A stretch of 46,063 nt of DNA from a virus. A program made the translations under genes and the position numbers. Below, in pieces: positions 3,027 to 45,982 of the stretch (the stretch's first letter is position 1; each line of letters starts with the position of its first letter). The stretch covers positions 1-46,063 of the IMG/VR virus record IMGVR_UViG_3300021077_000115. One strand, given 5' to 3'. Below the pieces are notes generated by a model. That model had not been told where the DNA came from, made no database searches, and saw nothing but the letters and a program-made list of their open reading frames with translations.

Positions 3027-3030
3027 TGAT

Positions 3031-4107: not shown

Positions 4108-4129
4108 GTTATCCTATCTGTTACTTTCT

Positions 4130-25134: not shown

Positions 25135-25160
25135 ATATATAAATAAGCGGTCGGACTAAT

Positions 25161-25198
25161 GCCTGGCTCAATAAAGAGCCAGGTATTATCAATTATTT
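25161..25198 (+). terminator. Probable rho-independent terminator after the S53 peptidase gene.
   Basis: gcctggctc-aataaa-gagccaggt, followed by an A/T-rich tract. Confidence 0.45.
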
Positions 25199-25227
25199 AA
25201 ACATTGCCAATATTATGACATATATAT

Positions 25228-27443: not shown

Positions 27444-27491
27444 CTGAAGACTCGGAAGCTTCGGAGCTTACGCTAAGTCTGGTATATTGTT

Positions 27492-28523
27492 ATGGCTCGT
27501 AAATTTCTATACAAACTTCATGCTTTAATTTCTAACTATGCTTCTAACCAAGTAACGCATTTGCTTTATTCGGGGCTTGGGTGGACGGTAGTTGGAAACA
27601 TTGATACCGCAGGAACGTCTGGTAACTTATCATCTATTGCCTCAAATGTTCAAGGCTCACGTGTATTGTTTGCTAGTTACTATGGAAGTAGTGTAGTTCC
27701 ATTAAATTATTCTGGTGGCACTTGGATTGCAGGAAGCCCAGTTTCAGTTCCTAGTGGTGGTGGTAATGTATCGTCTGTTACAATATCAGATGATGGACTG
27801 CATGCATTAGCAACCGGAGATTTTGCAACTGGAGTTACTCCATTTGAATTCAATACAGGCACTGGCCTTTGGACGGCTGGGTCTATTGTTCTTGTCCCAA
27901 GTGGAGACTCATTAGGTTTTGATTCAATAAGAATGACACGTGATGGGTTAAGGGCATTAGTTGTTCCTAAATATGATGATACCGCATGGCCATTGGCACG
28001 TAATCCAATTACTAATATTTGGACTGTAGGAAGTGGTATTTCACTCAATTCATCTAACGAAAGATTTTTCGCAATCGGAATTTCACAGGATTCTAATGTA
28101 GCAATAATAGGTAGTAACTTGTCCGGAGTCCAATCAGATGGTCTTACTTGGAATGGGACTACATGGGATCGTACGTCAATACCAGTCACATTAATTAGTG
28201 CTTCTTGGCGACCAGATGGCTTATCAGCAATAGGGGGAAATGGTGAGGGAGAAGCGGGATCTATTCGTACTGTTAATTTTGATCCAATAACCAAAGCTTT
28301 TACTGCAGGACAAACTCTAACTGGCTTTTCTAATGTAGGTACAGTTACCGTAGCTAATGATGGAATTGGCGATCTTGCCTTAGCTTCTGACTTTTCTGGA
28401 AACGTATTAATCCCTCTCACTTATTCTAGGTCTACCGGGCTTTGGTCAGCCGGAGCTCCAATCACAAGCCCACTTTTCACTAACCCTTCCACGTCTATTG
28501 TATTCCCGGTTTGGGATGCTTGA
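27492..28523 (+). CDS. Hypothetical repeat-containing protein (343 aa).
   Basis: Recurrent G[LT]W[TS]AGS segments suggest a beta-propeller or fibre-like repeat. Confidence 0.45.
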   Translation: MARKFLYKLHALISNYASNQVTHLLYSGLGWTVVGNIDTAGTSGNLSSIASNVQGSRVLFASYYGSSVVPLNYSGGTWIAGSPVSVPSGGGNVSSVTISDDGLHALATGDFATGVTPFEFNTGTGLWTAGSIVLVPSGDSLGFDSIRMTRDGLRALVVPKYDDTAWPLARNPITNIWTVGSGISLNSSNERFFAIGISQDSNVAIIGSNLSGVQSDGLTWNGTTWDRTSIPVTLISASWRPDGLSAIGGNGEGEAGSIRTVNFDPITKAFTAGQTLTGFSNVGTVTVANDGIGDLALASDFSGNVLIPLTYSRSTGLWSAGAPITSPLFTNPSTSIVFPVWDA

Positions 28524-28554: not shown

Positions 28555-29079
28555 GTGGATATTATTCAGCTTCATAAGTTCGCAGACCTATTTAAAGCAG
28601 CGGTGAAAGAAGTAAAGATCGAAACTAACTTCGACAAAGGAGATCATGTATTCGGTTATCAACTACTTCTAGACTTCTACAATTGCAAGAAGGGCGTCTG
28701 CGATGACATGGAACTTTGTTATGATTTCTTGGACAAGGTAGTTGAGCATATAGGTATGAACAGAATGGCACCGCCACAAATTCTACGTGGTGATGCTAAG
28801 AAATATCCAGAGAAAGGCCCTGGGCTTTCTGGATGGATACCACTAATTGAAAGCTCTGCTGTAATCCATACGTTATCAAAGAAGGATTTTATTTCTATCG
28901 ATGTGTATAGCTGTAAGTATTTTGAAGTCCAGAAGACGTTGGACTTTGCACGTCAATATTTTAAACCTAAGGTTATTGAATATCAAACTATTGAACGCGG
29001 AATAGACTATTATAGGGTACACACTAAACACCATTCGATGACAGCTAGTGACGATATAATAGATATTGAAAAGAAGTAA
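28555..29079 (+). CDS. speH: Pyruvoyl-dependent S-adenosylmethionine decarboxylase proenzyme (SpeH/SpeD small bacterial class).
   Basis: PLIESSAVIHTLSKKDFISIDVYSCK matches the self-cleavage and active-site region (…ES|S…IHT…D[VI]F[TS]C) of class-1 AdoMetDC. Confidence 0.6.
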   Translation: MDIIQLHKFADLFKAAVKEVKIETNFDKGDHVFGYQLLLDFYNCKKGVCDDMELCYDFLDKVVEHIGMNRMAPPQILRGDAKKYPEKGPGLSGWIPLIESSAVIHTLSKKDFISIDVYSCKYFEVQKTLDFARQYFKPKVIEYQTIERGIDYYRVHTKHHSMTASDDIIDIEKK

Positions 29080-29112: not shown

Positions 29113-29643
29113 ATGGAAATTAAGTTAACTAAAGGCTTGGTTGCTATTGTTCCAGATAATGTATTTGAACATTTGAATGCATGGAATTGGCACGCCGGAA
29201 AATATGGTAGGACTTTTTATGCCATTCGCAACAGCCCTCGTAAAAACAAGAAGAGAAAAACAATACTAATGCACCGCATTATATGGGAATTATTACACCC
29301 AGAATATATTGGAACTAAATACCAATTAGATCATGTTGATGGAGTTGGATTTAATAATCTTGAGAATAATCTTAGAGTTGCCTCCGTGATTGAGAATCAA
29401 AGAAACAAGATAAAACCTAACAACTGTTCAAGTAAATATAAAGGTATACACTGGAATAAAGAGAAGGGTAAGTGGCAGGCACAAATTAGAGCTGGAGAAT
29501 TGTGTCAGAATGGGAAACACAAGCAAATACACCTTGGTTATTTCTGTTCTGAAATAGAAGCGGCTGAAGCTTATAATCAGGCTGCTATAAAATATTTTGG
29601 AGAGTTTGCAAAATTGAATTTTACACTAAGAAATTACCAATAA
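29113..29643 (+). CDS. HNH homing endonuclease with a C-terminal AP2 DNA-binding domain.
   Basis: The HNH region is HRIIWELL…LDHVDGVGFNNLENNLRVASVIENQRN. The AP2-like region is YKGIHWNKEKGKWQAQIR…IHLGYFCSEIEAAEAYNQAAIKYFGEFAKLNF. Confidence 0.75.
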   Translation: MEIKLTKGLVAIVPDNVFEHLNAWNWHAGKYGRTFYAIRNSPRKNKKRKTILMHRIIWELLHPEYIGTKYQLDHVDGVGFNNLENNLRVASVIENQRNKIKPNNCSSKYKGIHWNKEKGKWQAQIRAGELCQNGKHKQIHLGYFCSEIEAAEAYNQAAIKYFGEFAKLNFTLRNYQ

Positions 29644-30502: not shown

Positions 30503-31834
30503 ATGAAAGCATTATCCGCTGCGCTATTATTATTGGTAATGGCTTGTGGTTCTTCTGGAAACACAAATCAAACTATAGGAACTGTTTCAGTAGGCGGTTC
30601 AAATGTTACACAAAGCTCCAGCGGTAATACCGATGTAAGCTCTGGCAACACTGGCGGTGTCTCAACTGCTAGCTCTGGTGGCGATACAAGCTCAGCTGGC
30701 ACCATGGCCACAAGCACTGATGGACCTGGAGGCACGTCCAGCACTGGTGATACAAGCACAGATCCATCAATGAGTTTAGGCGGTTCGCAAGACTTTGCCT
30801 CAAGCGGTGGCGGCAGTTCAATGGATGTTGGTTCTGGTGGCGGTAGCTCAGTAGATGTATCAACTGGAGGTGCAGTGACAATAGATATACCAACCGGAGG
30901 CGGAAGCTCGATAGATGTAGCAACTGGCGGAGGAAGTTCTGTTGATGTTATTACGGGTGGCGCAAGCTCTATTGATATGCGAACTGGTGGTGGAACTAGT
31001 ATTGATCTGGCAACTGGCGGAGCACCTTCCATTGATCTCGGCTGCAACAGTGCGTCTCCTCTAAACCAAATAAACGTCTTCGTAACCATGGACGCAGCGC
31101 CCTCGGGCGCTGACACCGAAGGCAACATGTACGTTGGCGGTAATCTGACAGCCACGGGTAGTTACACCGTTGGCGCGAAAGACACGCTGGATTGCACCCG
31201 TTACTCATTGGTCGTGGGTGGGAACATCACGATCAAGGGCGGAAGCGTAAACGGCGGCAAGGCCGTTTATGGCGGAACCACCGCTAGTGTCAGCGGCGTC
31301 AGCTTTGCGTGTGACGGTTTGACGCGAGGCAAGGGCCCGGTTGACTTGGTAGCGTTGAAGGCAACGGTCGAAGAGTTGAGCATTCGATTGTCGAAACTCA
31401 CATCCAACGGCACGGTCACCTCAACCAGCGGCAAGCTGACGCTCACCGGCACGGACAAGAAGCTCAACATCTTCAACGTCACGGCGGCGCAGTTGAACGC
31501 CGTCACGGAAACCGTTGTGAATTTCCCAGCGGCCTCTGCTGTGGTCGTCAACGTGAGCGGCACAGACGTGGTCTGGGGCAACGGCTCCGTATGCCTCAAT
31601 GGGCAGTGTGGGGATAGCGATCAAGCGACTAACGTGCTCTGGAATTTCTACGAGGCTGCGACCCTCTACTCGACGGGTATGGCCATTCAAGGGTCTGTGT
31701 TGGCACCGTTCGCCACGCTCGATGGAGGCGGCGGACATATTGCGGGTCAGGTCATCGTGCGGTATCTAAAGGGCGGACTCGAATATCACCCCTACTACTT
31801 CGATGCGTGCCTCATGTGGACTTCGCTCGTGTGA
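30503..31834 (+). CDS. Secreted lipoprotein with a Gly/Ser-rich region of tandem 12-aa repeats and a C-terminal GC-rich domain (choice-of-anchor-A-like by eye).
   Basis: A lipobox LLLLVMAC|G. Eight imperfect repeats of GGGSS[MVI]D[VMIL]xTGG. A C-terminal NVFVTMD…GNMYVGGN…YSLVVGGNITIKGGSVNGG pattern. GC rises to about 60% from about 31040 onward. Confidence 0.55.
   Translation: MKALSAALLLLVMACGSSGNTNQTIGTVSVGGSNVTQSSSGNTDVSSGNTGGVSTASSGGDTSSAGTMATSTDGPGGTSSTGDTSTDPSMSLGGSQDFASSGGGSSMDVGSGGGSSVDVSTGGAVTIDIPTGGGSSIDVATGGGSSVDVITGGASSIDMRTGGGTSIDLATGGAPSIDLGCNSASPLNQINVFVTMDAAPSGADTEGNMYVGGNLTATGSYTVGAKDTLDCTRYSLVVGGNITIKGGSVNGGKAVYGGTTASVSGVSFACDGLTRGKGPVDLVALKATVEELSIRLSKLTSNGTVTSTSGKLTLTGTDKKLNIFNVTAAQLNAVTETVVNFPAASAVVVNVSGTDVVWGNGSVCLNGQCGDSDQATNVLWNFYEAATLYSTGMAIQGSVLAPFATLDGGGGHIAGQVIVRYLKGGLEYHPYYFDACLMWTSLV
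30803..31040 (+). repeat. Tandem 36-bp (12-codon) direct repeat array, about 6-7 units, inside the lipoprotein gene.
   Basis: Seen directly: …ggcggtagctcagtagatgtatcaactgga / ggcggaagctcgatagatgtagcaactggc / ggaggaagttctgttgatgttattacgggt…. Confidence 0.7.
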
Positions 31835-33154: not shown

Positions 33155-33895
33155 ATGTATGAACTTAAGGCTGCTAAATTCTATATCAGAAACCGTGATG
33201 GATTCCCTGAAACGGAAGTGCTGGACTATTCTCGCCGAGGATTTTGGTTACTTGGAGTAGAAACATCTACATTCGAATCTACAGAAGAGATTTCAGAGAT
33301 TGGTGATCTAAGTCCTACCGTTGGTCTGGCTGGTTACATAGAGGATGTTCATCGCGCTCTTGCAAAGCTTGGGCTTCCAACACCAAAGAGCATTGACTAT
33401 CCAGAAGAACTCACAGACTTTCTTGGACGTTCGCTACGGCAAATGAAGCTGGGAGAGATCCGTTCCATGGCGGATTCCTACTTCATCAAGCCAGTCCAGC
33501 ATAAAATCTTCAATGGAATGATTTGGAACAATGATAAACTATCTCGCCGTTTAATTGTAACCCAAGCCGATGACGTTGATGTTTGGGTATCCGGGCTTGT
33601 CAATTTCGTTTCAGAATACCGATCATTTATTTTGGATGGGCAGGTACTTGACTGCCGGCATTATAAAGGAGATTGGTCAAAGGCTCCTGACAAGTCAGTG
33701 GTAGAGGCTGGCGCGGCAGCTATGAAGGGACACAGCCCGATAGCATACTGCCTAGACTGGGGCGTCACCGATGATGGCAGAACTCTACTGGTAGAGTTCA
33801 ATGACGGATATTCCTTCGGTCACTATGGGCTCAATCCAGTCTTCTGCGCACATATGCTATCAGCGAGGTGGTATGAGATGTGTTTAGGATATTAG
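33155..33895 (+). CDS. ATP-grasp-fold ligase-like protein.
   Basis: KPVQHKIFNG, EYRSFILDGQVL and LDWGVTDDGRTLLVEFNDGYSFG resemble the ATP-grasp B/C subdomain motifs. Confidence 0.45.
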   Translation: MYELKAAKFYIRNRDGFPETEVLDYSRRGFWLLGVETSTFESTEEISEIGDLSPTVGLAGYIEDVHRALAKLGLPTPKSIDYPEELTDFLGRSLRQMKLGEIRSMADSYFIKPVQHKIFNGMIWNNDKLSRRLIVTQADDVDVWVSGLVNFVSEYRSFILDGQVLDCRHYKGDWSKAPDKSVVEAGAAAMKGHSPIAYCLDWGVTDDGRTLLVEFNDGYSFGHYGLNPVFCAHMLSARWYEMCLGY

Positions 33896-34456: not shown

Positions 34457-35392
34457 TTATCCATATGGAAGTTCATGGGTGTGTGGATTATCATCGAACA
34501 TTATCCACCTGTTAGATACGCCACGACTATCAAGGAATGCCATCATGTCCCGCGCCCCATCGCCATTCGAAGAGTGGATATGGATCACTTCCGGAGCTTT
34601 GTGCAGATACCTCATCAGATAGCCGCAAGCATCTCTGCCGGTCAGATCACAATCTCCCATATAGCTACGGTGTTCGAAATCATTCAGGTCATGATCCAAA
34701 CTGATCATGTCAAAGTGATCGTATCTCTCCAATGCTTCGCGGTATTCATCGATATCGTATACGTGTATGATCTCGTCTAATGGATATCGAGCATCCATTA
34801 TATCGTGGCGAGCTGGATTGTCATCAAGGAACAAGATTCTTGTATGATAAGTTACTGGCTCTTGATCTATATGTGAGTTGATAGCGGCATCCTCTTCCTG
34901 TAATAGTTTCTTCCTTGGCTCATCTAAATGGTCTGTGTAACAAATTAGAGTGTTGTGTCTCGAACATACATGAATTTGTATCTTGCGAGTGGTTAGATAT
35001 CTGAATAGAGATGGAGTTCCACAAGCAGAACCATCAGTATTTTTACCAAGGTATAGTATTATTTTGGTTTGCATTAGAACGTTCAACAGACCATTGTTAT
35101 AGTTGGAGGGCCAGCTAACAAAGGCGATGTCGATTTCATCATGCATATCTTGGAAGAATTGATGTCGCAGCTCAATCTCCGGAGGTACACCATTGAAGAT
35201 TTTGCGATTGTACTCCTTATCAATCGCAATGATCTTGGCGGCACCCAGCCTCAGAAGTTCGAGAGCAAGCCCCAAATCCCCAGCGCCAAGGTCGTGGATT
35301 ATCTTACCAATAACAAGCGGGGCTAACACGCCAAGCTGAGTTTTGTTGAGCTGTCCGTATGACATAACATTCTCTTCTCTATCAACTTGCAC
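34457..35392 (-). CDS. Two-domain protein: an N-terminal Rossmann/SAM-methyltransferase-like domain and a C-terminal receiver (CheY-like) domain-like region.
   Basis: IHDLGAGDLGLALELL is a GxGxG segment. The C-terminal RILFLDDNP … FDMISLDHDL … VIHIHSSNGDG pattern resembles REC-domain signature segments. Confidence 0.35.
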   Translation of the reverse strand: MQVDREENVMSYGQLNKTQLGVLAPLVIGKIIHDLGAGDLGLALELLRLGAAKIIAIDKEYNRKIFNGVPPEIELRHQFFQDMHDEIDIAFVSWPSNYNNGLLNVLMQTKIILYLGKNTDGSACGTPSLFRYLTTRKIQIHVCSRHNTLICYTDHLDEPRKKLLQEEDAAINSHIDQEPVTYHTRILFLDDNPARHDIMDARYPLDEIIHVYDIDEYREALERYDHFDMISLDHDLNDFEHRSYMGDCDLTGRDACGYLMRYLHKAPEVIHIHSSNGDGARDMMAFLDSRGVSNRWIMFDDNPHTHELPYG

Positions 35393-36378
35393 AATGATGA
35401 ACGTTCAGAAATACCCCTTGTCTTACCATAAAGCGCTGAATTGTAACCGCTCCAAGTCTCTAAAGGCTTCCCTGGGACTGGTAATGTTTCTCTCTTGTTG
35501 GGAAGCCTACCATGCAAGTTATAAAAAGACTGTATATCGTACAAGATTATATCTTCGGTTAGTCTTGGTTTGCCCTTTGGATTCTGAACACCGCGTTCTT
35601 TTTGAAGTAATTTTGCTAATGTAGATCCTCCCGGCAAACCACGCTGACCACGGCTAAGGTAAATATCATAATGGGTCCAAGATTCGTATGATTTATCTGG
35701 AACTCCAAAGCTAGAATTAGTCTTAGGCCAAAACCCATGTTGCTGAAAAAATCTATCAGCATCCTCCAATATTGTTTCCTCGGTTATTTTATCTGAAAAG
35801 CGATTATCTTCTAATGACTCTGCCTCTAGAAGTTTCTTCCTAGCCATGGCTTGTCTTGGGTACCAATCGCCAAATAAATCCCTTGATATAATATCCTTTA
35901 TAACCGGAACAAATAACAGCCAAGCTTCGTATGGCATGTCTCTTCGTAGCGTATTGCATCTTTGACAAGCCGGCACAACATTCATTTTCAAATGCCCAAG
36001 ATCGTTATAAACACGGTCGAGTCCAAGCAAACGTATATCGCGTTCACCGCAATATGAGCATCCATTACTAATCTTCTCTTCAATGAATTCCTTTGTCAGA
36101 TCACAATTTCGTCCTCTTGCTTTGTCACCTGTTTTGTAGCTGCGTAATAAGTTTGCTGAGTGGCCTATTCCTTGGGCTCTATTAATAGCAGCCCTGTGTA
36201 ATCTTTTTTTATCTATTTCTGGCGATCTTTTTTCTTTGTTACGTTTGATGTAACATGGTTTACATACATCTTTGTATACCGGCTTCCCATTTTTCGCAAT
36301 GTATGAAACATAGAACAGATCTGTCTTTTGCGGACCACATACTTTACATACTTTTATTTCTAAATTTTCCATGACCAA
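35323..36378 (-). CDS. HNH endonuclease with an N-terminal zinc ribbon.
   Basis: CSYCGERDIRLLGLDRVYNDLGHLKMNVVPACQRCN carries the C-x2-C…H…N…H…C-x2-C HNH signature. The N-terminus is CKVCG…CKPCY. Confidence 0.6.
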   Translation of the reverse strand: MVMENLEIKVCKVCGPQKTDLFYVSYIAKNGKPVYKDVCKPCYIKRNKEKRSPEIDKKRLHRAAINRAQGIGHSANLLRSYKTGDKARGRNCDLTKEFIEEKISNGCSYCGERDIRLLGLDRVYNDLGHLKMNVVPACQRCNTLRRDMPYEAWLLFVPVIKDIISRDLFGDWYPRQAMARKKLLEAESLEDNRFSDKITEETILEDADRFFQQHGFWPKTNSSFGVPDKSYESWTHYDIYLSRGQRGLPGGSTLAKLLQKERGVQNPKGKPRLTEDIILYDIQSFYNLHGRLPNKRETLPVPGKPLETWSGYNSALYGKTRGISERSSLCKLIEKRMLCHTDSSTKLSLAC

Positions 36379-36514
36379 AAAGAATGGGCGAACGAGTCCA
36401 TCTCTTTGGCTCTAAGTATCTATCAATTAAAACGAAGTATTCATTTCCATTGGTTTCAAACCCATCGCCCATCACAAATACATATATCAATATGCATAGG
36501 TGTGTGGATAGCTT

Positions 36515-38491
36515 CTACTTCAATGCTGTTATTTCTGCGGTAAATCCACCAGATAATAGGGGAAATCTACACCAAGTATCGGCTTCTAGGCTGTGATTAT
36601 CGCAGTGCAAAGAAGGTGAAAATTTAATTCTTTTCCACTGGTTTCTTGACCACAGAGTGAAGAACTTTTTGACGTATGAAACTGCCAATGGATTTGTGAT
36701 ATCAGTCCGTTCACGACGCAGGCAATCAAGTACCTCTTGTGGTCCCTTCTTCTCCAGAATAGCCCATGTCTCGATGGCATCGAGGACTGTGTAAGGCATC
36801 AAGTCTTCTTCATCGGTTTGCCCCTGCCCTGGCCGCAGCTCAGCGGTTGGTTTCTGAACCACGATACCCTTCAGCGAAGAATAGGTCGTGACCATCGCAG
36901 TCAACCATTCGAGCAGGAAAGCCTTATCAATGCCGCCGATAGGCGCAATGGATCCGGCGGTATCACCATCCATCGTGCAGTAACCCACGGCCGCTTCAGA
37001 GCGATTGCTCGTTGTGATCAGGAGCTTGCCTTCGAGGTTGGCCACCATCCAAATGCCGGGAGCTCGTGCACGGGCCTGAATGTTCTGAAGCGCAAGGTCG
37101 TCCTTATCCCAAGTTAGCGGACGGCCTTCAACTTGCTCAGCCAACGCTGTGTAGCGCTTCACAATTGAATCGATGCTGATGCTCTTGAACTTGGCACCAA
37201 GCTGCTTAGCAACGTCTCTAGCTGCCTTGAGCGTTACCTTGGAGCTGTTCGATGTAGATTGATAAACGCACGTCAATAACTTACTCATGAGCTTCTTACA
37301 ATCAGATGGATCTTTATAGTTTGCGCCATGGCAAAGGTCGCCCAGGCCAATCCGATTGCAGGCCTCTTGTAGGCCAAGCTCTGAAGCTGCGCGCGTAAAC
37401 ATGATGTCAACCAGAACAGCGCATGCTGCTGAATCTGCTCCGCCGCTGAGCGATACCACGAAGCCTTTCGAATGAGACTTTTCCAAGTAGTCGAAGAGCC
37501 CAAGCGTAATCGCATTGGTGAACTCTTCATGCTTGGTGATTGAAGTGTCTTGAACTGGCTTCGTTACTTTCTCTTCGCTGTTTGCTAACTTACCACCACA
37601 CCTTATCATTCCATTAGCTTCAAGGTTTGGTGAGAAGCTTGCGGTACTGACAATTTTCGTAGTGGTCTTAGCCAGATCAATGACAGCGGTGGTTAGATTG
37701 ACCCTCTTCATATTCAAATAGGGGCCTCTAGCAAGCAGATCTCCACAGTTTGCGATGAGACAATCTCCGTCATAGATGGCTCGGCCTGCTTCATTACCAA
37801 GAAGATTGGCGTAGATGTACGTGACGTTGAATGCTCGCGAGCCCTCAACAACAAGACGTTCTCTGGTGACTCTCTTTCCAAAGGCAAAGTGAGATGCCGA
37901 AGGATTCAAGATGATATCAACCCCACGCTTTGCTAAAGCATTGCCTGGGCGCTCTGCAACAAAAGCATCCTCGCAGATCTCGAATCCAATATTGACTCCA
38001 TCAATATTGAAAATGAAATCGCCCATCGGCGCACCGCGCAGAGAAAGCCCCTTACTGAGCTGGCCGCGTATGGGAGTTGTTGTTCGTATGCCGCTTGGCC
38101 ATGGTTTGAACCATCGTGGTTCGTAATGAAGACCGTCACCTGCGAGATGTTGTTTGGGAACAATGCCAATAATCTCTTTGTCGTAAACGCAGACCATTAC
38201 ATTGTAGAGTGCATTATGTAGCAGGTACGGCACACCGAAACAGGTGAAGATGCCCTCGGTGCAAGGCAGTAAGTCTTGAAGCACATCCCAGGCACTATCC
38301 CTTACTGCCTCTGATAGGAAATGATCTTCGCAACCGTATCCGGTGATTGCCATCTCAGGCAAGCATAGGATTTTAACACCCTCTCTTTTGGCCTCGTAGA
38401 GGGCATCGATGACGTTCTTTTTGTTGCGCTCCCAATCGAGGGGAGTTTGGTTCAAAGATGCCGCGCCGACTTTGATGTTTGACATGAGCAT
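36515..38491 (-). CDS. nadE: Glutamine-dependent NAD+ synthetase (N-terminal CN-hydrolase/nitrilase domain plus C-terminal NAD synthetase).
   Basis: At 658 aa it has the long two-domain form. The N-terminal Glu/Lys/Cys hydrolase region is ILCLPEMAITGY…FEICEDAF. The PP-loop is VVSLSGGADSAACAVL (SGGxDS). Confidence 0.8.
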   Translation of the reverse strand: MLMSNIKVGAASLNQTPLDWERNKKNVIDALYEAKREGVKILCLPEMAITGYGCEDHFLSEAVRDSAWDVLQDLLPCTEGIFTCFGVPYLLHNALYNVMVCVYDKEIIGIVPKQHLAGDGLHYEPRWFKPWPSGIRTTTPIRGQLSKGLSLRGAPMGDFIFNIDGVNIGFEICEDAFVAERPGNALAKRGVDIILNPSASHFAFGKRVTRERLVVEGSRAFNVTYIYANLLGNEAGRAIYDGDCLIANCGDLLARGPYLNMKRVNLTTAVIDLAKTTTKIVSTASFSPNLEANGMIRCGGKLANSEEKVTKPVQDTSITKHEEFTNAITLGLFDYLEKSHSKGFVVSLSGGADSAACAVLVDIMFTRAASELGLQEACNRIGLGDLCHGANYKDPSDCKKLMSKLLTCVYQSTSNSSKVTLKAARDVAKQLGAKFKSISIDSIVKRYTALAEQVEGRPLTWDKDDLALQNIQARARAPGIWMVANLEGKLLITTSNRSEAAVGYCTMDGDTAGSIAPIGGIDKAFLLEWLTAMVTTYSSLKGIVVQKPTAELRPGQGQTDEEDLMPYTVLDAIETWAILEKKGPQEVLDCLRRERTDITNPLAVSYVKKFFTLWSRNQWKRIKFSPSLHCDNHSLEADTWCRFPLLSGGFTAEITALK

Positions 38492-38495
38492 TTCC

Positions 38496-40031
38496 TCAGA
38501 GCGAATTGAAATTAGCTAGGCGATTTGCTTTGCAGGCATCAATCAATGCTTGTGTGGCTGGTGAGTTGGCGATGGTGTTAATCCCTAATGCTGCCGTTTT
38601 GAAATCCGGTTCGAAGCCGCCGCGCTGGCTTCCTCTATCACTCAAGCAATAGTGGTTTGCGATGGCTTCCCCCTTCTGTCCGATGATTCCAACAGGAATC
38701 CCAATGTTGGCGTGCATTGGATACGGACGATAGATGACTGGAAGTCCTGGGGCAGACTGCTTGCTGTTTCCGGCCTCATCTCCAAATTTCATAGTGGCCA
38801 TGTCACCGCTCTTTGTAAGCTTCCAAACAGCAGCAACGTCATCGCGCCGGAACGTCGTCCACGTTGGCTCCACCAAGAATCCTCCGAAGCCGTAGGCTTG
38901 CCGATCTGGTGACCACTCCATCATCTCACGATACCTCTCGAACTCAATCGTCTTGTGCAGATTCCATCCGCTTTCCAAGATGAGCTGAGGCAACAGACCA
39001 AGACGCAAGCATTCTGTTATCGTGTAGAAGTAGTGGTTCTTGATTCGATCTTCTGAATCGAAACGAATGCCGGCATTGCGGTCTGGCCGCTCTTGAATTG
39101 CGCGCAGCGCTGCAGGGATTCCCGATCGAATAGAATCGAACGTGTCTGGTAAGTAGGAAATGAAACCAGGGAAACGATCACGCATTGTGATGAATGATTG
39201 ATAGTCATTGCCGAAGCGCTGAACATGCTCGTGCCCCATCGTGCCAACCGGAATCATCCCAAGCTCTTTGGCTAGATAGACATTCGATGTGCGCAGAATG
39301 CCTGCCTCTTTTATGGCGCTGAGAGCTATCCTGTGCTGTGCCATGCACGATACGGCACGCATACCAACCTCAAAGATCCGATCTGGATTTCCGCCAACTG
39401 CGTCCACCAAGGCTTTAGCTTTAGCCAAGATGTCTTGGTAGAACTCATCGGAGCGCACTTCAATTTCTGGTACCTTACAGCCAACGAGAGCGCATGTTGA
39501 GATGATGAGCTCCTTCTCTTCTTCACAGGTCGCAAGCATCTTTTGAGGCAGAGTATGCACCTTGCCCGCTGTTGCCACCTGGACAACGAAGTTGAGCATG
39601 AGTGTCGTTGGCTCTAGCCAACTAGCAACAGCTGATGGGCCTGTTGCCGAGAATGCCGGCTCTCGATTGTAGAACCAGGATCCTTCTGGAATGGCCGAGA
39701 CACTTACAGTATTGGCCAACGAGAATGCTTTGCGATACGCCGCGCCAACAGCGTAGGAGTTGGCTTCAAGGTATCTGTAATCTTCGGTAAGTTCTACCGT
39801 AGGGAAATCATTTGGCGGTGGGAATTCGTCAATTGGAAGAAGGCCTTTGACGTACTTCTCCGCGTCTATCGGCATGAAATGCCAGCCATAAAATCCACCG
39901 CGCCTATGAGTATAATAAAATGTCTCTGTTCTTAGTGGAAATCCAGCTTCGGCCATTGATAGTTTATATGCGTCGGTTTCTGTGATTCGTCTCATGATAG
40001 TATAATACCTCAAGCATAATTCGCTTGTCAA
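38496..40031 (-). CDS. Nicotinate/nicotinamide phosphoribosyltransferase-family protein (PncB/NAMPT type II PRTase). The sub-family is not resolvable by eye.
   Basis: The N-terminal TDAYKLSM resembles the TDxYK[LV]T motif. GTMGHEH is a phospho-His-like segment. Length is 511 aa. It is adjacent to nadE. Confidence 0.65.
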   Translation of the reverse strand: MTSELCLRYYTIMRRITETDAYKLSMAEAGFPLRTETFYYTHRRGGFYGWHFMPIDAEKYVKGLLPIDEFPPPNDFPTVELTEDYRYLEANSYAVGAAYRKAFSLANTVSVSAIPEGSWFYNREPAFSATGPSAVASWLEPTTLMLNFVVQVATAGKVHTLPQKMLATCEEEKELIISTCALVGCKVPEIEVRSDEFYQDILAKAKALVDAVGGNPDRIFEVGMRAVSCMAQHRIALSAIKEAGILRTSNVYLAKELGMIPVGTMGHEHVQRFGNDYQSFITMRDRFPGFISYLPDTFDSIRSGIPAALRAIQERPDRNAGIRFDSEDRIKNHYFYTITECLRLGLLPQLILESGWNLHKTIEFERYREMMEWSPDRQAYGFGGFLVEPTWTTFRRDDVAAVWKLTKSGDMATMKFGDEAGNSKQSAPGLPVIYRPYPMHANIGIPVGIIGQKGEAIANHYCLSDRGSQRGGFEPDFKTAALGINTIANSPATQALIDACKANRLANFNSL

Positions 40032-40053
40032 TATGTTTTATCCAATAGTTGGA

Positions 40054-40509
40054 TCACGTATTAGGGGCAAGTTTTAGAGTGTCGAGATCCCAAATTCCAA
40101 GTTCCCTAATCACCATTTCGACTGGTGGCTGCGGCATCTTCTTCCTTTGAATCATACACCAAACCGATGGGCCCCATACCGGATCTTTCCTCCACATTCG
40201 GTATAAGGTTTCGATTTCTTTTTTGGGCAACTCTTCAGCGTCTGCACATGCCCACGCGAACACATCGCTACAATTCACATTCACGCTGATTGACTCTTTA
40301 AACTTCTCAGGAAGATCTTTCTTCCACCAATGATTATTCACAAATACAACGTCATTGAGCAGCAGATGAGCGAGCGCTTTGTCTTTCTCAAAAACTAACT
40401 CATCTGCAGGTCTTCCATGCTTCAACTGGTCTTCCTCAGACCAATCCATTTTCCACTCGATTGATTCTTCGGTGATTACCCACTCAATATTCTCAGCCAT
40501 CAGCGCCAC
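40054..40509 (-). CDS. Hypothetical protein (151 aa).
   Basis: ORF only. Confidence 0.4.
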   Translation of the reverse strand: MALMAENIEWVITEESIEWKMDWSEEDQLKHGRPADELVFEKDKALAHLLLNDVVFVNNHWWKKDLPEKFKESISVNVNCSDVFAWACADAEELPKKEIETLYRMWRKDPVWGPSVWCMIQRKKMPQPPVEMVIRELGIWDLDTLKLAPNT

Positions 40510-40554
40510 TCCTTAAAATGAGAGGGCCTCAGTTGAGGCCCTCTCAAATTACTA

Positions 40555-41373
40555 TCAGATGAAACCTCCAGCGGCTTGGCTAAGACCACCGGAGGTTGCC
40601 TGGCTGAAGCCACCGACGCCGGCTTGACTCACGTTCAGAGCAGACTGCGAGAGCAAACGGAATGCCTCACGGAACTCGTGCTCCGAATTTTCTGGGGTCA
40701 GGATCCAGTTATCCAACAGACCCATCTCCGAGAACATCTTACGGAAGTCGTAGTATCCGTCGCTGATTCCGATGCCGGCAATCACATCCATCTCGTGATT
40801 CATGCGGCCCATTGTTAGTGGGAGAAGTTCCTTTGCCTCCTTGAAGGCCTTGGAATGCTCATCCCTACCGTCTGTGATGAACGCGGTGATTGTTCGACAG
40901 GGAATGCAGGCCTCTTCGTACTCATCGACCTGCTTGGCCACAATTTCGTATGTGACTGCGATTTCGTCATAGAGTGGCGTGCCACCATTCGCGAAGAAGT
41001 TCTGCCGATATACCAACTCGGGAACTTCCTTGAGCTTGCGAAATGGATAGATCACCTCTCCGCTTAGGTTGCGCGCTGCCATGAATACGTCAGCGCCTTG
41101 CTTGCTGCCCAAGAGCGTTCTTCGGATTAGGTTGTGGCCTTCGCACAGAAGTTCTGCGTTGTTCAAATTGCTTTGGGACTTCGGATTCCTTCGCTGCATT
41201 GAGCCGGAATCGTCGAGAAGCAATTGAATAAGCAGCGCAGTACTTACCTTTGCGTTGATGGCCGGCATCCCTTGTCCAGCTTGAATCTTGGCAGTCAAGT
41301 CTGGAATTTGAACCAGGGTTGCCGTAACTCCCTGATCCTGTGTTGATGCAAATAAACTGCTGCTAGAACTCAT
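40555..41373 (-). CDS. von Willebrand factor A (vWA) domain protein.
   Basis: The MIDAS motif is LLLDDSGSM (DxSxS). A Rossmann-like alternation follows. Confidence 0.55.
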   Translation of the reverse strand: MSSSSSLFASTQDQGVTATLVQIPDLTAKIQAGQGMPAINAKVSTALLIQLLLDDSGSMQRRNPKSQSNLNNAELLCEGHNLIRRTLLGSKQGADVFMAARNLSGEVIYPFRKLKEVPELVYRQNFFANGGTPLYDEIAVTYEIVAKQVDEYEEACIPCRTITAFITDGRDEHSKAFKEAKELLPLTMGRMNHEMDVIAGIGISDGYYDFRKMFSEMGLLDNWILTPENSEHEFREAFRLLSQSALNVSQAGVGGFSQATSGGLSQAAGGFI

Positions 41374-41421
41374 AATTGGTATTCCTTGTATTGTGTTTTT
41401 ATTGGGGTGAAATTGAACTCG

Positions 41422-42480
41422 TTATGCAGCCAATTGAATGCCAGGCCAGGTTTCCATACGATCGCTCAGGCGAACGACATTCATTCCAGCATTGCGGAAT
41501 TTGTTGAGCGCCTCTGTGGCGGAGTCTGTAAAGTCTGGCCCACCGAATGCGCTGAGATTCACAGCGGACATTCCATCCTCTGCTATGTACACCTTCTTGG
41601 CAAGGCTTGGATCGTTTGCCAATATCCAGGTAAGTAGATCATCGATCGTGCTTGCCACGCAATGACTTGATGCTTGGCCCATGATGACGACGTAGTCAGC
41701 AGCCAACAGCGTCTTGATCATGCGCATGCGGTTCTCGCCGTTGTCGAGAATGGTTCCGTCGTGCGCAATCTTCACCTCGGGCCCGAGTACGGAGAAGCAC
41801 TCAGTGAGAACGTTGCCTCCTTTAACTTCAGGATCGTTCTCTACGCGGCGCACGAAAGAGTGGAACGAGATGGCTTCAAAGACCGTTCCGATAATTGGAT
41901 GGCCGTCACTGCCGAGAACGCAATGGGGAGCGAAAGCAATGAGGACTTTCTTGCCATCCGTTTCGAGCTTGCGCGCATAGTGCACAACGTAGTCGTTGAT
42001 CCAAGTGCTCGTTGCGCCCGGAATGAAGTTGACCATCGAGGGGATGACTTTGATCTTGCCGGAAGCAATCATGTCTAGTGGGATGATTTGATTTTGCGGA
42101 ACCGGAGTGCCGTCTGCCATTTGCCAGAAGGTCGGCGTGAAGATCTGATAGCGCTTGTGAGTGTCCATCGTTGGTACGATGTCCGTAATCACGTCGAGAT
42201 TTTCGTAGACGAACCTGGCGATGCGATTGCTATCATCGACGGCACCAGTTCCAGAACGCCCGCTAACGAACAGGGTACCGCGCGGATGACAGAAGTCTTT
42301 GTTGGCATCGATGATGAGTACGGTGACCTTCTTCTTCGCTGTCACGGACGCCTTGATCTTATGGTCCTTGCGCCACTCATCTGCAAAGAGACGAAGCTTA
42401 TCTAGGCTCGGGCTATAGTCCCAGTTGCCAGCATTTGCTGGGTTGAAAAACGCTGGGACTGGTAGAAGAGAACGTTGCAT
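41422..42480 (-). CDS. Isochorismatase-family cysteine hydrolase (nicotinamidase/PncA-like) with an N-terminal extension.
   Basis: VTVLIIDANKDFC has the catalytic Asp context. IMGQASSHCVASTIDD has the catalytic Cys in a GxxxxxCVxxT context. Confidence 0.6.
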   Translation of the reverse strand: MQRSLLPVPAFFNPANAGNWDYSPSLDKLRLFADEWRKDHKIKASVTAKKKVTVLIIDANKDFCHPRGTLFVSGRSGTGAVDDSNRIARFVYENLDVITDIVPTMDTHKRYQIFTPTFWQMADGTPVPQNQIIPLDMIASGKIKVIPSMVNFIPGATSTWINDYVVHYARKLETDGKKVLIAFAPHCVLGSDGHPIIGTVFEAISFHSFVRRVENDPEVKGGNVLTECFSVLGPEVKIAHDGTILDNGENRMRMIKTLLAADYVVIMGQASSHCVASTIDDLLTWILANDPSLAKKVYIAEDGMSAVNLSAFGGPDFTDSATEALNKFRNAGMNVVRLSDRMETWPGIQLAA

Positions 42481-42519
42481 TTGTGTTTTACCTTTCTATG
42501 TCCTTCAGTTCCTACTTAC

Positions 42520-44400
42520 TCAGTTAATTTTAAGTTTCACAATGTCGCGCCGTCCGACTACATAAAGCCCATCGGCTGCGGCAAAAAGTCTTGACCCTGA
42601 ATTTACAAACGGCTCTGTGTCGGGGAACTCCTTCGCCACAACAATTTGTGCTCCATTGCACTTCACCTGAACTACACCATCATCGGTTGGGGCAAGAAGG
42701 ACATTGCCGGCAGCCGTTGCTCCACGAATGTTTGACAACCAGGAACCATCACCATGAACGGCCTCAGCTGAAGCTAAGACAGTCCCATCTTGTTGAATGG
42801 CAGAGCAGCGATTGATGGTCTGCCCATTCTCTTGAGATGATGTGAAGAACCAACAGAGCTTGTCGGTAAACGAACAGGAGGCATCTATCAACTGCCCTCG
42901 AATTCTTGGCACCTTGACGCTGTCATTGATGCCACGCGAGTCCGCTTTGAAAATGAATGCGATGTTCAATTCACCAGCGCGATAGAAACCAAACCCAAAT
43001 GTTGGGCCGACCCAAATGTGTGTCAGTCCGGAGATGACAGCTCCAATATACTCTGGTCCAAGTGGCGTGTTTCGATTCAAACGATCGTTGGTTGTCCAGA
43101 ATATGTTGTCAGCATTTGAATCAAACACCGGACGCTCTTGCACGATATCCATCTGAAGCTGTGTTGGCTTCTTGTTTGGTGTAAAGATGGCACCCATTCC
43201 ATCCTTACCAATAATCGTTGAGCTTCCCATTATGCGATATCTGAATCTCGGATCAATCTCGTGCTCAATAACAACGGATCGATCCTCTCGCCTGAATGTT
43301 TCTGCCTCATAATAGAGCCAGAGCATTCGTCCTTTTTGAACTGTTGCGAATACAATAGAACCAGTAGTATTGAACATCTGCGTCACGGTGACACTCTTCC
43401 TAACCGTCACCGTTTGAACAACGGCAATGGGTGGAGCCTTCACGCAGTTGGGACAATTCGGACGAGAATATTCTTGGCCACATACGTTACACTTTGTCCA
43501 GCGCATGTCTTCCAAGCACTTCACAGGGAAGACGCTTCGATTCCCTTGTTCGAAGATGCCGGCAAGATAATGGCACAGCTCATCTGATAGTGCGCTGTAA
43601 TGGATTGCCGTCTTAGGGTATCCAACTTCAGGATTGAATACGCTTATCTTGTGCAGGCCGCGCGCTGTATGGGCAACCTTCTTAGTCCTGTCAGCTGGCT
43701 TATAGATGCCGCCGTACGGATGAACGAAGAGCATGCACTGCATGAACATGACACAGAACGAATACCAATCAGAATCCGGTGTGTGATGCTTGATTAGTTT
43801 GGGCTCCTTCAAACTCGGATCGCACAGCAGTGGATCGATATAGGCCTGCGTGAACATGAAAGATGGGAAGCCTTCAATTGACGCACTGTCAATGTCAATG
43901 ATGTATGGCATATCTGATTTTGCCAGCACCAAAATATTCAGCGGATTGACATCACCAAGGATAACTTTGTGCGCATGAAGGGCAACAAAATCTTCATGGA
44001 TCTTCGTGAAGACATTTCTAACGTGATCATTTGAGATGCCAGCTCTAAACTCCTGGTCACCGTATTCAAGCAGAACGTTAGTGCCACCAATGAATGGCAT
44101 GCGGTAGCCGGCTATCTTCTTCGAATGATCGGTTGTAAATGCAAGCGCATCCGGAACGATAACACTCGGCGGCAAGTTCCTTGGAATGGCTGGAAGCTTC
44201 TTTTGATGCTGGTTGATACGCGCCGATGCCGCTTGCTGAGCCTCCGGCTTTCCTGCAAAGTCAGGATGGTCTGGCTCCTTGAATATCTTCAAGACTTTGT
44301 TATTGGGCAGGCCGTAAATTATTGCCTCGCCGCCCTCACCCTTTACTGAGTTTGGGGTTAGCCTGATCCTTTCCCCTTCGACATCAACCTCTTTAATCAT
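42520..44400 (-). CDS. Protein-kinase-like domain protein (Ser/Thr kinase fold) with a C-terminal zinc ribbon and large C-terminal domain.
   Basis: The Gly-rich loop is GEGGEAIIYG. VLKIF is the Lys strand. The catalytic loop LHAHKVILGDVNPLNILV is HxD-like. IDIDSA is DFG-like. CNVCGQEY…CPNC is also present. Confidence 0.55.
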   Translation of the reverse strand: MIKEVDVEGERIRLTPNSVKGEGGEAIIYGLPNNKVLKIFKEPDHPDFAGKPEAQQAASARINQHQKKLPAIPRNLPPSVIVPDALAFTTDHSKKIAGYRMPFIGGTNVLLEYGDQEFRAGISNDHVRNVFTKIHEDFVALHAHKVILGDVNPLNILVLAKSDMPYIIDIDSASIEGFPSFMFTQAYIDPLLCDPSLKEPKLIKHHTPDSDWYSFCVMFMQCMLFVHPYGGIYKPADRTKKVAHTARGLHKISVFNPEVGYPKTAIHYSALSDELCHYLAGIFEQGNRSVFPVKCLEDMRWTKCNVCGQEYSRPNCPNCVKAPPIAVVQTVTVRKSVTVTQMFNTTGSIVFATVQKGRMLWLYYEAETFRREDRSVVIEHEIDPRFRYRIMGSSTIIGKDGMGAIFTPNKKPTQLQMDIVQERPVFDSNADNIFWTTNDRLNRNTPLGPEYIGAVISGLTHIWVGPTFGFGFYRAGELNIAFIFKADSRGINDSVKVPRIRGQLIDASCSFTDKLCWFFTSSQENGQTINRCSAIQQDGTVLASAEAVHGDGSWLSNIRGATAAGNVLLAPTDDGVVQVKCNGAQIVVAKEFPDTEPFVNSGSRLFAAADGLYVVGRRDIVKLKIN

Positions 44401-45230
44401 AGTGCCACGCTCCTGCGACGACAGACAATTAATGAAGCATCATCACGAGCAATACCAGCCCGTGCGTCAGCGCAAAGACCTCCATTGAATACCATGATTC
44501 GGCGGCGCACCGCCTCCTTGTCGTCGAAGTATTGATCGCCAGTCCAGAACTGACTGAGCGGGCCAACCAACTCCTCCTTAGGAATGCGGCTCCCAATCTG
44601 CTTTTTGGGGATTAGCTTTCCCTCTGCAACACGAATGTCCTTGAGCCCATCTGAGCCGAGCAAGAAGTGATCAACCTCGGAGGTTGGAAGCTGTAGCATT
44701 ATTTCGATGTCAGGACGAATCGAACTGCTTATTAAGTTGTAGCCGAGATACTCTGGGCGATTCCCCTCAGGTGTTTTGATTGGGATCTCTTCTCCATTAA
44801 CAATCAGCACTCCATCCCCGGCACGGAAGAATGTGGTTTGTTCATCAGTCATCACAAAACCGATTATCGTGAAAAAGAAATACTCGATAATCAATGAGTT
44901 GTAATCTTCATTAACTGACCATACTGACTGTGCAATATTGCCAACCCTAGCTATTATATCATCCTTGATTGTAGACCAATCAACCTCAGTACACAAACTT
45001 GCCGATGATAAATACTCTGTTGATATTACATCTGTTGCGATGTTGACACCAAGCTGCGCTCCAACTTCTGTGTGCTCCCCAGTTCCACATCCATCAGCGC
45101 AAACGCCAACAACAACAGTATTATCATCAGAGGTTTTTCTGAAGACGCGAACAGCATCTTGACAGTTTGTTCTAATGTACCGATGATCGGCTCCCTGAAG
45201 AACTCCAGATGCGAATTCATGATTTGACAT
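44397..45230 (-). CDS. PP2C-family Ser/Thr phosphatase-like protein.
   Basis: GVCADGCGTGEHTEVGAQLG resembles DGMGGHxxGE. LLGSDGLKD is GSDGL-like. The C-terminal ARDDASLIV is DDxT/S-like. Confidence 0.5.
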   Translation of the reverse strand: MSNHEFASGVLQGADHRYIRTNCQDAVRVFRKTSDDNTVVVGVCADGCGTGEHTEVGAQLGVNIATDVISTEYLSSASLCTEVDWSTIKDDIIARVGNIAQSVWSVNEDYNSLIIEYFFFTIIGFVMTDEQTTFFRAGDGVLIVNGEEIPIKTPEGNRPEYLGYNLISSSIRPDIEIMLQLPTSEVDHFLLGSDGLKDIRVAEGKLIPKKQIGSRIPKEELVGPLSQFWTGDQYFDDKEAVRRRIMVFNGGLCADARAGIARDDASLIVCRRRSVAL

Positions 45231-45298
45231 CTGCCAAGTAATACATTTAATCAGTGATAAAAGTCAAGACAAAATGTCTGTTCGGCCACTAGTTCTGA

Positions 45299-45982
45299 CT
45301 AAACAAACGGGTCTGAGCCTGGATTCTTTTCATCATCGCGCCGCTCCACGCAGCACGCGCACTCGCCAGTCCCTTCGCGCTCTGGGCAATGCTCGCACCT
45401 ACACCCACTAAACTCTCCGGGTGGCGGGAAGAATTTGTTACCAGAAGATTTGTTGATTTTCCATTCGGCCGGAACGAAAAGTTCGCACTCTGTTAAAGTG
45501 GTCTTGAGCTTGAAGCCCACCGTACAGACGCCGGTCCACCAAGGGGTTGCCGTAGAGTGAAATGGAGATGATGGTATGCAATGAATGCAGGTCTCGCACG
45601 GCGCATTGGTTGGAATGTGCCCGATAAAGCTCATGGGAGTTTTCTTCTGGGCTCGCAGATCGTCAACACAATCCTGAGCGGTTTGAACGCACTCATCGCA
45701 GATGTTGACCATAGGTCCAGCCACGAGGGCTTCGCAGTCTGCGCCCGAGCGCCCACAGAACGAACAACAGAAAACCGATGAACGCTTATCTTCCTTTGAT
45801 AACTTAACGTTAACCTCAACCAAACAGAGTGTGTCTTCAACATTGGCAAGGCAACGCCAAGTTCCATCATCCATCTGAGTAGCTTTGCCGATGTAAGTAA
45901 TATCGTGATTAGGATCCTTCATCCCATCGACATCTATTTCAACCTTATCAGGAATTGTATCAGGAATTTTCATATCATACAC
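45299..45982 (-). CDS. Cys-rich hypothetical protein (227 aa).
   Basis: Multiple CxxC clusters (CDECV, CETCIHC, CRCEHC, CACC). Confidence 0.4.
   Translation of the reverse strand: MYDMKIPDTIPDKVEIDVDGMKDPNHDITYIGKATQMDDGTWRCLANVEDTLCLVEVNVKLSKEDKRSSVFCCSFCGRSGADCEALVAGPMVNICDECVQTAQDCVDDLRAQKKTPMSFIGHIPTNAPCETCIHCIPSSPFHSTATPWWTGVCTVGFKLKTTLTECELFVPAEWKINKSSGNKFFPPPGEFSGCRCEHCPEREGTGECACCVERRDDEKNPGSDPFV

Follow-up and report, generated by a model that had tools for sequence, protein, structure and literature searches.

A phage-borne copy of a conserved PP2C–kinase–nicotinamidase–vWA cassette, probably captured from cellular NAD+ salvage

Introduction

In bacteria, NAD+ salvage is controlled at the level of transcription, by NrtR, NiaR and NadR, and by metabolites. 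We know of no salvage enzyme that has a kinase/phosphatase pair of its own, and literature searches for such a pair found none. The TerY-P triad, a signalling module that contains a kinase and a phosphatase, was reportedly described by Anantharaman et al. in 2012. As set out in PMC11090510, it consists of a TerY-like vWA protein, a PP2C phosphatase and a Ser/Thr kinase that bears a zinc ribbon at its C-terminus, and TerY-P-like modules have been reported there as stand-alone antiphage systems (citing Gao et al. 2020). Here, we analyze a DNA stretch of 46,063 nt from a probable large phage (IMG/VR record IMGVR_UViG_3300021077_000115, positions 1–46,063), hereafter the window, and in particular its region 40555–45230, in which genes for a PP2C phosphatase, a protein kinase, a predicted nicotinamidase and a vWA protein form a four-gene cassette.

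Three further groups of described systems bear on this cassette. NrtR is an ADP-ribose-responsive repressor of NAD+ genes whose sites are 21-bp palindromes with the core GT-N7-AC (Rodionov et al. 2008, PMC2330246); its published operons read nrtR-pncA-pncB-nadD-nadE or, in cyanobacteria, pncB-nadD-nrtR-nadE and similar. Systems centered on an ADP-ribosylglycohydrolase (ARG), which are regulated by Nudix or WYL proteins and contain vWA proteins, have been proposed to act against viral ADP-ribosylation (Iyer et al. 2022, PMC9503650). In phages, Preiss-Handler clusters of pncB, nadD and nadE are documented in jumbo phages (PMC11662467), and three experimentally defined NAD+ routes are distinguished as NARP1 (Adps and Namat), NARP2 (Nampt and Nmnat) and NARP3 (PnuC and a NadR-like protein) (PMC13464706).

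Results

A four-gene cassette with a fixed order in cells

Nine co-directional, tightly packed open reading frames (ORFs) occupy 35323–45982 on the minus strand of the window (Table 1). A preliminary description, made from the sequence alone, had listed five of them as one co-directional run, namely a Cys-rich protein, a PP2C-like phosphatase, a kinase-fold protein with a zinc ribbon, an isochorismatase-like protein and a vWA protein; all five lie on the minus strand exactly where it placed them. The stop of the PP2C gene overlaps the start codon of the kinase gene by 4 nt, and from PP2C to NadE the distance between one gene and the next ranges from this overlap to 48 nt. A promoter and terminator scan gave no signal above shuffled expectation.

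In a scan of one genome per species, the kinase is encoded in 414 species genomes, among them those of many cyanobacteria along with Patescibacteria, Gammaproteobacteria, Acidobacteriota, Planctomycetota and one Aenigmatarchaeote (DPANN). ORFs were called in 81 cellular loci and searched with the window proteins; 63 of the loci have enough flanking DNA to be assessable. All four genes are present in 59 of these 63, always in the order PP2C-kinase-nicotinamidase-vWA and on one strand. Of the 81 loci, 76 have a PP2C homologue directly upstream of the kinase, 71 have the nicotinamidase directly after the kinase, and 66 have the vWA gene next. This arrangement is far beyond chance. Because the same four genes recur in the same order, the isochorismatase-like gene belongs to the unit as a constant component. 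The gene-neighborhood survey that the preliminary description had called for thus reveals a fixed order, and its picture of an NAD+ gene interleaved into a three-gene triad has to be replaced by that of a constant fourth member.

In all likelihood, region 40555–45230 is a phage-borne copy of this conserved cellular cassette, captured from NAD+ salvage. The cassette is apparently undescribed so far, as no description was found in the searchable full-text literature, a scope that leaves subscription journals largely outside.

Table 1. Positions of the cassette genes and other features in the window
Feature	Coordinates	Strand	Basis
Cys-rich protein with ClpX-type C4 zinc finger, 227 aa	45299–45982	-	PF06689
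PP2C-family (PPM) Ser/Thr protein phosphatase, 277 aa, cassette gene 1	44397–45230	-	PF13672 and conserved Asp residues
Protein kinase, 626 aa (1,881 nt), cassette gene 2	42520–44400	-	Fold and invariant residues
Predicted long-form nicotinamidase (PncA-like, isochorismatase fold), 352 aa, cassette gene 3	41422–42480	-	Triad, metal site, family PF00857
Divergent vWA-domain protein, complete MIDAS, conserved Ser/Gln-rich C-terminal tail, 272 aa, cassette gene 4	40555–41373	-	Model and Foldseek
Uncharacterized 151-aa protein, between vWA and NAPRT-like genes	40054–40509	-	No database match
Divergent type II phosphoribosyltransferase, NAPRT-like, 511 aa	38496–40031	-	NCBIfam, phrog_448
Glutamine-dependent NAD+ synthetase NadE, 658 aa, nitrilase and synthetase domains	36515–38491	-	PF02540, PF00795, PRK13981
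HNH/endonuclease VII	35323–36378	-	Last ORF of the co-directional run
Cas6-type protein	1570–2097	-	PF08798
Uncharacterized 310-aa protein in cas block	2094–3026	-	
Cas7/DevR	3031–4107	-	
Cas3 HD-helicase	4130–6508	-	
FtsH-like AAA and M41 protease	6992–8911	-	
Rv2179c-like exoribonuclease	9474–9995	-	
DHFR	9997–10512	-	
Thymidylate synthase	10509–11390	-	
GIY-YIG	13498–14343		
Polysaccharide pyruvyl transferase and glycosyltransferases	14985–17134		
SocA/Panacea antitoxin domain	18036–18590		
AdoMet decarboxylase	28555–29079		
HNH+AP2	29113–29643		
R2K ATP-grasp	33155–33895		
cREC_REC cyclic-phosphate receiver domain	34457–35392		

Domain architecture of the cassette proteins

The phosphatase matches PF13672 (PP2C_2) with 54.4 bits against a cut-off of 24, and at least 97% of 87 homologues share its metal-binding residues D25, D46-G47-C48, G138-D139-G140, D194-G195 and D263-D264, in line with the PP2C-like assignment made earlier.

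The kinase consists of a kinase domain (residues 1–300; 43501–44400), a zinc ribbon (about 301–320; 43441–43500), a disordered linker (321–329) and a 7-bladed β-propeller (330–626; 42523–43413). Its AlphaFold2 model, built on 25 homologues, has a pLDDT of 90.8, and residues 330–626 are all-β in it. The best Foldseek matches are LRRK2 (kinase and WD40), Aurora B, PKC-theta, IRAK4, ERK2 and CDKs, all of them protein kinases, and no aminoglycoside or choline kinase is found among the matches listed. In the alignment, the glycine-loop residues G23-G24-E25-A26 as well as K38, D150, N155, D169, D171 and D211-W212 are invariant, and so are the four zinc-ribbon cysteines C304, C307, C316 and C319 (CxxC…CPxC), which follow the kinase domain. 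The kinase-fold and zinc-ribbon call is therefore borne out, and the fold matches listed speak against the small-molecule (aminoglycoside-phosphotransferase-type) kinase that the preliminary description had named as one way in which the assignment might fail. The Pfam Pkinase model aligns to residues 120–244, the half that carries the catalytic loop, with 29.7 bits against a cut-off of 31.7. Homologues of full length number more than 350, with 45–50% identity to the kinase. Among 554 cluster representatives, the propeller always stands at the same position among the long matches listed (about 600–660 aa), to which this survey applies; shorter matches (about 165–490 aa), taken as fragments, fall outside it. 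A single-sequence PDB search with the kinase returned a lectin, which we regard as spurious. Distant homologues of the kinase domain (22–23% identity over residues 9–292) also occur in two uncultured huge phages of 485 and 595 kb, whose records carry no annotation (LR745208.1 and LR756511.1).

The product of the third gene is best assigned as a nicotinamidase, judging from its motifs. All 25 aligned sequences keep the catalytic residues D58, K220 and C274, which align with the motifs of Mycobacterium tuberculosis PncA; D106, H108 and H186, assigned to the nicotinamidase metal site as in PncA/Pnc1 structures, are invariant as well. The window protein itself has no Pfam match, and 18 of the 25 members of its family match PF00857 (Isochorismatase), which agrees with the earlier isochorismatase-like call. 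When the family profile is compared with the PDB, the best match is M. tuberculosis PncA (3pl1), a weak one (E 0.0026) over three short motif stretches, and NCBI and JGI annotate homologues as nicotinamidase. At about 350 aa, the protein is longer than M. tuberculosis PncA (186 aa), from which it differs by extensions at both the N- and the C-terminus and by an insertion. Some cassette nicotinamidases bear a further N-terminal domain of about 245 aa that has no Pfam match (L018:9749-11674, L029:9908-11650, L030:9910-11670, L048:9865-11733 and L086:11867-13666; L numbers denote loci), and the same domain occurs as a separate gene in the same neighborhoods (L097:6041-6766, L018:12830-13612 and L030:12744-13433).

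The product of the fourth gene is matched by no Pfam vWA model. Its structural model (pLDDT 84.4, pTM 0.84) retrieves vWA domains as all top Foldseek matches, with probability 1.0. The metal ion-dependent adhesion site (MIDAS) residues D54-x-S56-x-S58, T132 and D168 are invariant in the alignment, D55 is invariant as well, and so are three serines at the C-terminus, S242 and S244 in the last helix and S249 at the helix end, before a disordered tail. The vWA call, which had rested on the DxSxS motif, is thus upheld by the fold and by a complete, invariant MIDAS. Single-sequence PDB searches with the vWA protein and the nicotinamidase were uninformative. As to confirmation by profile hidden Markov models, which the preliminary description had asked for, PF13672 passes for the phosphatase, whereas Pkinase stays just below its cut-off and no Pfam vWA model matches.

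Predicted control of the cellular cassette by NrtR

We clustered the ORFs neighboring the cassette in the 81 cellular loci and annotated representatives with Pfam. A gene for NrtR (PF00293 Nudix domain and PF21906 NrtR winged helix) lies next to the PP2C gene in 50 loci. Downstream of the cassette, a nadD-like adenylyltransferase fused to NAD kinase is found in 14 loci and pncB in 13, and nadE lies nearby in five. In addition, in 25 loci spread over several phyla, a palindrome (A/T)TAGTGTA-N5-TACACTA(T/A), which fits the published NrtR core, stands just upstream of the PP2C gene, as compared with one NrtR-type site in equal-length stretches inside kinase genes. Because NrtR adjoins the cassette and the palindrome precedes its PP2C gene, the cassette is a predicted member of the NrtR regulon in cells. 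In 16 cellular loci, most of them cyanobacterial, a gene for an ADP-ribosylglycohydrolase separates the PP2C gene from the kinase gene (in L049 at 7174-7980).

The cassette resembles the published NrtR regulon (PMC2330246) in its adjoining NrtR, in the 21-bp palindrome before its first gene and in the presence of a nicotinamidase, often together with pncB, nadD and nadE. It differs in that the published reconstruction contains no kinase, PP2C or vWA genes and does not include the cassette. The preliminary description had suggested that the signaling genes were merged with NAD+ metabolism in this phage. The link itself is real; the merger is not a phage invention, but is ancestral and cellular, because the nicotinamidase is constant in the cellular cassette, and it stands under predicted NrtR control.

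Relation to the TerY-P triad and to ARG-centered systems

A tblastn search of the kinase against phages and plasmids gave only distant N-terminal matches and led to a Deinococcus plasmid that carries a canonical vWA-PP2C-kinase operon with transposases on either side. In hhalign comparisons, the profile of the cassette kinase aligns with the kinase of this triad with a probability of 98.5% (E 3.6e-15, 290 columns including the zinc ribbon), and the vWA profile with the triad vWA protein with 87.9% (E 3.2e-6, including the MIDAS and the Ser-rich C-terminal helix). The canonical triad kinase also has a G-D-x-x-x-x-N loop, and it reaches the Pfam Pkinase threshold. These profile comparisons identify the signaling proteins of the cassette as remote homologues of the TerY-P-type triad, as their resemblance to a mobile vWA/PP2C/kinase module had led the preliminary description to expect.

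Both modules comprise the same three protein types, with a MIDAS-bearing vWA protein and a PP2C phosphatase encoded beside a kinase that ends its catalytic part with a C-terminal zinc ribbon; in both, the PP2C gene directly precedes the kinase gene, with reading frames that overlap or nearly do so. The cassette nevertheless departs from the triad in several ways. It has a constant fourth gene, the nicotinamidase; its order is PP2C-kinase-PncA-vWA rather than vWA-PP2C-kinase, although the viral contig L096 has the vWA gene first; its kinase carries a 7-bladed β-propeller after the zinc ribbon; and its vWA protein is too divergent for the Pfam vWA models. Its context also differs, being NrtR and NAD+ salvage instead of tellurite-resistance (Ter), restriction and other defense genes. 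No PADLOC model matches the PP2C, nicotinamidase or vWA proteins, and the kinase receives weak generic kinase matches only. Taken together, we regard the cassette as a relative of TerY-P that probably works in a similar way, but not as a member of the three-gene system.

A PP2C-kinase pair is also found on plasmid 2 of Variovorax sp. SRS16 (L101, NZ_LR594667.1; 3055–7094), directly followed by pncB. Its PP2C protein likewise belongs to PF13672 and stands beside a distant homologue of the cassette kinase (hhalign 98.7% over the kinase domain), and the locus has neither nicotinamidase nor vWA genes. This is a second, independent link of a PP2C-kinase pair to NAD+ salvage.

The ARG-centered systems (PMC9503650) share with the cassette a neighborhood that combines a Nudix-HTH regulator, a phosphatase, a vWA 'chaperone' and, here in some of the loci, an ADP-ribosylglycohydrolase. 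However, the glycohydrolase is central there and optional here, and their phosphatases are of the rhodanese, calcineurin-like, HD or HAD types. In that paper, whose text came nearest to the cassette in the literature searches, the terms PP2C, nicotinamidase and PncA occur nowhere, and the section on these systems mentions no protein kinase.

The phage copy and its NAD+ genes

In the window, the cassette is joined by two further NAD+ genes. The phosphoribosyltransferase matches NCBIfam NAPRTase models with E 1e-20, far below their cut-offs, and phrog_448 with E 1.2e-10, and appears closest to nicotinate phosphoribosyltransferase. NadE matches PF02540 with 125 bits, PF00795 with 63.6 bits and the NCBIfam model PRK13981 with 245 bits. 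As annotated, nicotinamidase, the NAPRT-like protein and NadE would provide three of the four Preiss-Handler steps from nicotinamide to NAD+. When nrtR, nadD, ARH and canonical pncB were compared with the window by tblastn, only the NAPRT-like gene was matched, weakly.

The kinase occurs in 15 IMG/VR contigs of 42–436 kb, of which 12 have all four genes and seven have NAPRT or PncB adjacent. Homologues of the NAPRT-like gene adjoin the cassette in L091 and L095, and canonical PncB does so in L088, L097, L098 and L099. Most viral kinases are closer to cellular copies, namely those of Patescibacteria, than to one another, which suggests several acquisitions of the cassette by viruses. One relative, L085, whose kinase is 88% identical to that of the window, is classed as viral in IMG/VR; a megablast search of the 10-kb region against GenBank phages gave no match.

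Compared with the relative L002, all seven genes of the block have ratios of non-synonymous to synonymous substitution rates (dN/dS) of 0.05–0.13, and the four cassette genes of 0.05–0.08. Because of these low ratios, the block is taken to be maintained; it is kept under purifying selection. In L002 (13892–20586), and also in L003, L004 and L085, a TnpB-like gene (Cas12f1-like_TNB) and a 207-aa gene follow the vWA gene. In these four relatives, the genes for NadE and the NAPRT-like protein run opposite to the cassette, whereas in the window they are co-directional with it.

Two genes of the run are confined to this phage lineage. The Cys-rich protein matches PF06689 with 40.1 bits against a cut-off of 27 (residues 72–107); its homologues are limited to the close relatives L002–L004 and L085, with none in the 81 cellular loci, so that this gene, which the preliminary description had listed with the other four, lies outside the conserved cassette. 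This stand-alone ClpX-type zinc-finger protein, encoded directly upstream of PP2C and also Cys-rich in its C-terminal half, might interfere with substrate or adaptor recognition by host ClpX. The 151-aa protein has no match in Pfam, PHROGs, PADLOC or NCBIfam and no homologue in any fetched locus, including the 81 cellular ones.

Compared with other phage NAD+ systems, the block shares with the jumbo-phage clusters (PMC11662467) the clustering of phage-borne NAD+ synthesis genes, and would share with NARP1–3 the rebuilding of NAD+, which in the NARP case allows escape from NAD+-depleting immunity. Unlike the NARPs, which have no nicotinamidase, region 35323–45982 combines nicotinamidase, NAPRT-like and NadE genes; unlike the jumbo-phage clusters, which include nadD, the window yielded none in tblastn and in Pfam scans that covered about half of its other ORFs. 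The NARP and jumbo-phage NAD+ papers examined mention neither PncA/nicotinamidase nor PP2C nor vWA proteins.

Other genes in the window

The remaining annotated genes are listed in Table 1. A block of cas genes extends over 1570–6508 on the minus strand. Next to it, the first 2 kb are GC-rich, and a CRISPR array suspected there was discarded, since no repeats were found in 1–2200. Positions 1–2000 have a GC content of 0.615, as opposed to 0.35–0.50 elsewhere, with long overlapping ORFs on both strands, and may mark either an assembly junction or a compositional island. Several large ORFs (in 23875–28523 and 30503–31834) have no PHROG match.

Discussion

We propose that the window carries a captured NAD+-salvage cassette in which a phosphorylation switch acts on nicotinamide recycling and which serves, in the phage, to rebuild NAD+; we give this overall explanation a probability of about 60%. 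In cells, ADP-ribose from NAD+ cleavage would release NrtR, so that the operon is transcribed, and the nicotinamidase would turn nicotinamide, the other cleavage product, into nicotinate for PncB, NadD and NadE along the Preiss-Handler route. The kinase, PP2C and vWA proteins would form a reversible phosphorylation switch that gates the nicotinamidase step. In the likeliest form of the switch, the kinase would phosphorylate, and PP2C dephosphorylate, the Ser-rich tail of the vWA protein or the nicotinamidase, while the MIDAS site and the kinase propeller may supply the protein-protein contacts that turn the enzyme on and off. NAD+ recycling in the carriers is probably controlled by protein phosphorylation, while this specific mechanism remains tentative, somewhat short of an even bet; the partners in phosphorylation, the ligand of the propeller and the role in counter-defense are points that we infer. 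The phage lineage probably took the cassette without NrtR and joined it to the NAPRT-like and NadE genes in one packed, co-directional block. This block would presumably rebuild NAD+ from nicotinamide during infection, for example against NAD+-depleting host immunity, with the nicotinate mononucleotide (NaMN) adenylyltransferase supplied by the host or encoded in another part of the phage genome.

Several observations weigh against this explanation. The catalytic loop of the kinase is atypical (G-D-x-N-x-L-N, without HRD and without a Lys at D+2), and the protein falls just under the Pfam Pkinase threshold. The phosphoribosyltransferase is too divergent for its substrate to be assigned as nicotinate or nicotinamide. 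No gene for NaMN adenylyltransferase (nadD) was found by tblastn with the nadD-nadK fusion or by Pfam, whose scan outside 35323–45982 covered about half of the candidate ORFs of at least 100 aa. The window contains neither nrtR, as judged by tblastn, nor an NrtR-type operator beyond chance; the phage copy is thus uncoupled from NrtR, and its regulation must differ from that in cells. Capsid, terminase or other structural hallmark genes were not recognized in the window by PHROG search, and its viral nature rests on its gene content and on the IMG/VR classification of a relative. Finally, removal of nicotinamide could relieve the product inhibition of host NADases, which would harm the phage unless resynthesis keeps pace.

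The cassette could instead be a conflict system of the TerY-P type, active in defense or counter-defense, whose triad senses infection or protein ADP-ribosylation and whose effector is the nicotinamidase. Nicotinamide would then be lowered to alter NAD+-consuming enzymes, not to feed salvage, and phages would use the cassette for superinfection exclusion or to manipulate immunity. The kinase and vWA proteins are indeed remote homologues of a transposase-flanked plasmid triad, related modules are reported as antiphage systems (PMC11090510), and the ADP-ribosylglycohydrolase found between PP2C and kinase in 16 loci recalls the ARG-centered, Nudix-regulated, vWA-containing systems proposed as anti-ADP-ribosylation immunity (PMC9503650). 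The distribution of the cassette is patchy across phyla, with viral copies mostly nearer to different cellular copies, which points to repeated transfer, and a NACHT gene adjoins locus L001. We nonetheless consider this reading unlikely: PADLOC finds no more than weak generic kinase matches, the recurrent neighbors are biosynthetic (pncB, nadD-nadK and nadE) together with NrtR and its operator, not restriction or abortive-infection genes, and the cassette is retained in the very small genomes of Patescibacteria.

The atypical catalytic loop, the sub-threshold Pkinase match limited to residues 120–244 and the location within a metabolic operon would also suit a kinase in the NAD pathway whose substrate is a small molecule, perhaps a pyridine nucleoside or an ADP-ribose derivative, with PP2C as a metabolite phosphatase and no protein switch. 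That the profile alignment extends through subdomain IX, in which the invariant pair D211-W212 corresponds to the D-x-W-x-x-G of protein kinases, that the partner belongs to the PPM family of protein phosphatases and has a complete catalytic set, and that the canonical triad kinase has the same type of loop while passing the Pfam threshold make such a function quite improbable. Nor is it at all likely that the signaling genes and the nicotinamidase are mere neighbors with unrelated functions. In a few genomes, housekeeping genes follow the PP2C-kinase pair instead; but order and orientation are kept in 59 of the 63 assessable loci, across several phyla as well as in viral contigs, the genes overlap or are separated by short spacers, and the four cassette genes have similarly low dN/dS values in this phage lineage.

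A still wider reading can be sketched, which we regard as rather doubtful. The cassette may represent an unrecognized signaling system that places nicotinamide recycling in bacteria and archaea under reversible phosphorylation in response to NAD+ breakdown. It would have a dual input, with ADP-ribose acting through NrtR on transcription and another cue acting through the kinase propeller at the protein level; in large phages, together with NAPRT and NadE, it would constitute a fourth, self-regulated NAD+ route against NAD+-depleting immunity.

The cassette spans several phyla, including the genome-reduced Patescibacteria and DPANN archaea. Through it, the poorly understood TerY-P-type triad gains an output that can be assayed, nicotinamidase activity and NAD+ level, and the cassette could help to explain the general workings of vWA/PP2C/kinase switches. 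The unit appears to have entered several large phage lineages independently, often together with NAPRT or PncB, which would extend the phage-host conflict over NAD+ to the deamidated (Preiss-Handler) route and to phage enzymes that are regulated rather than constitutive.

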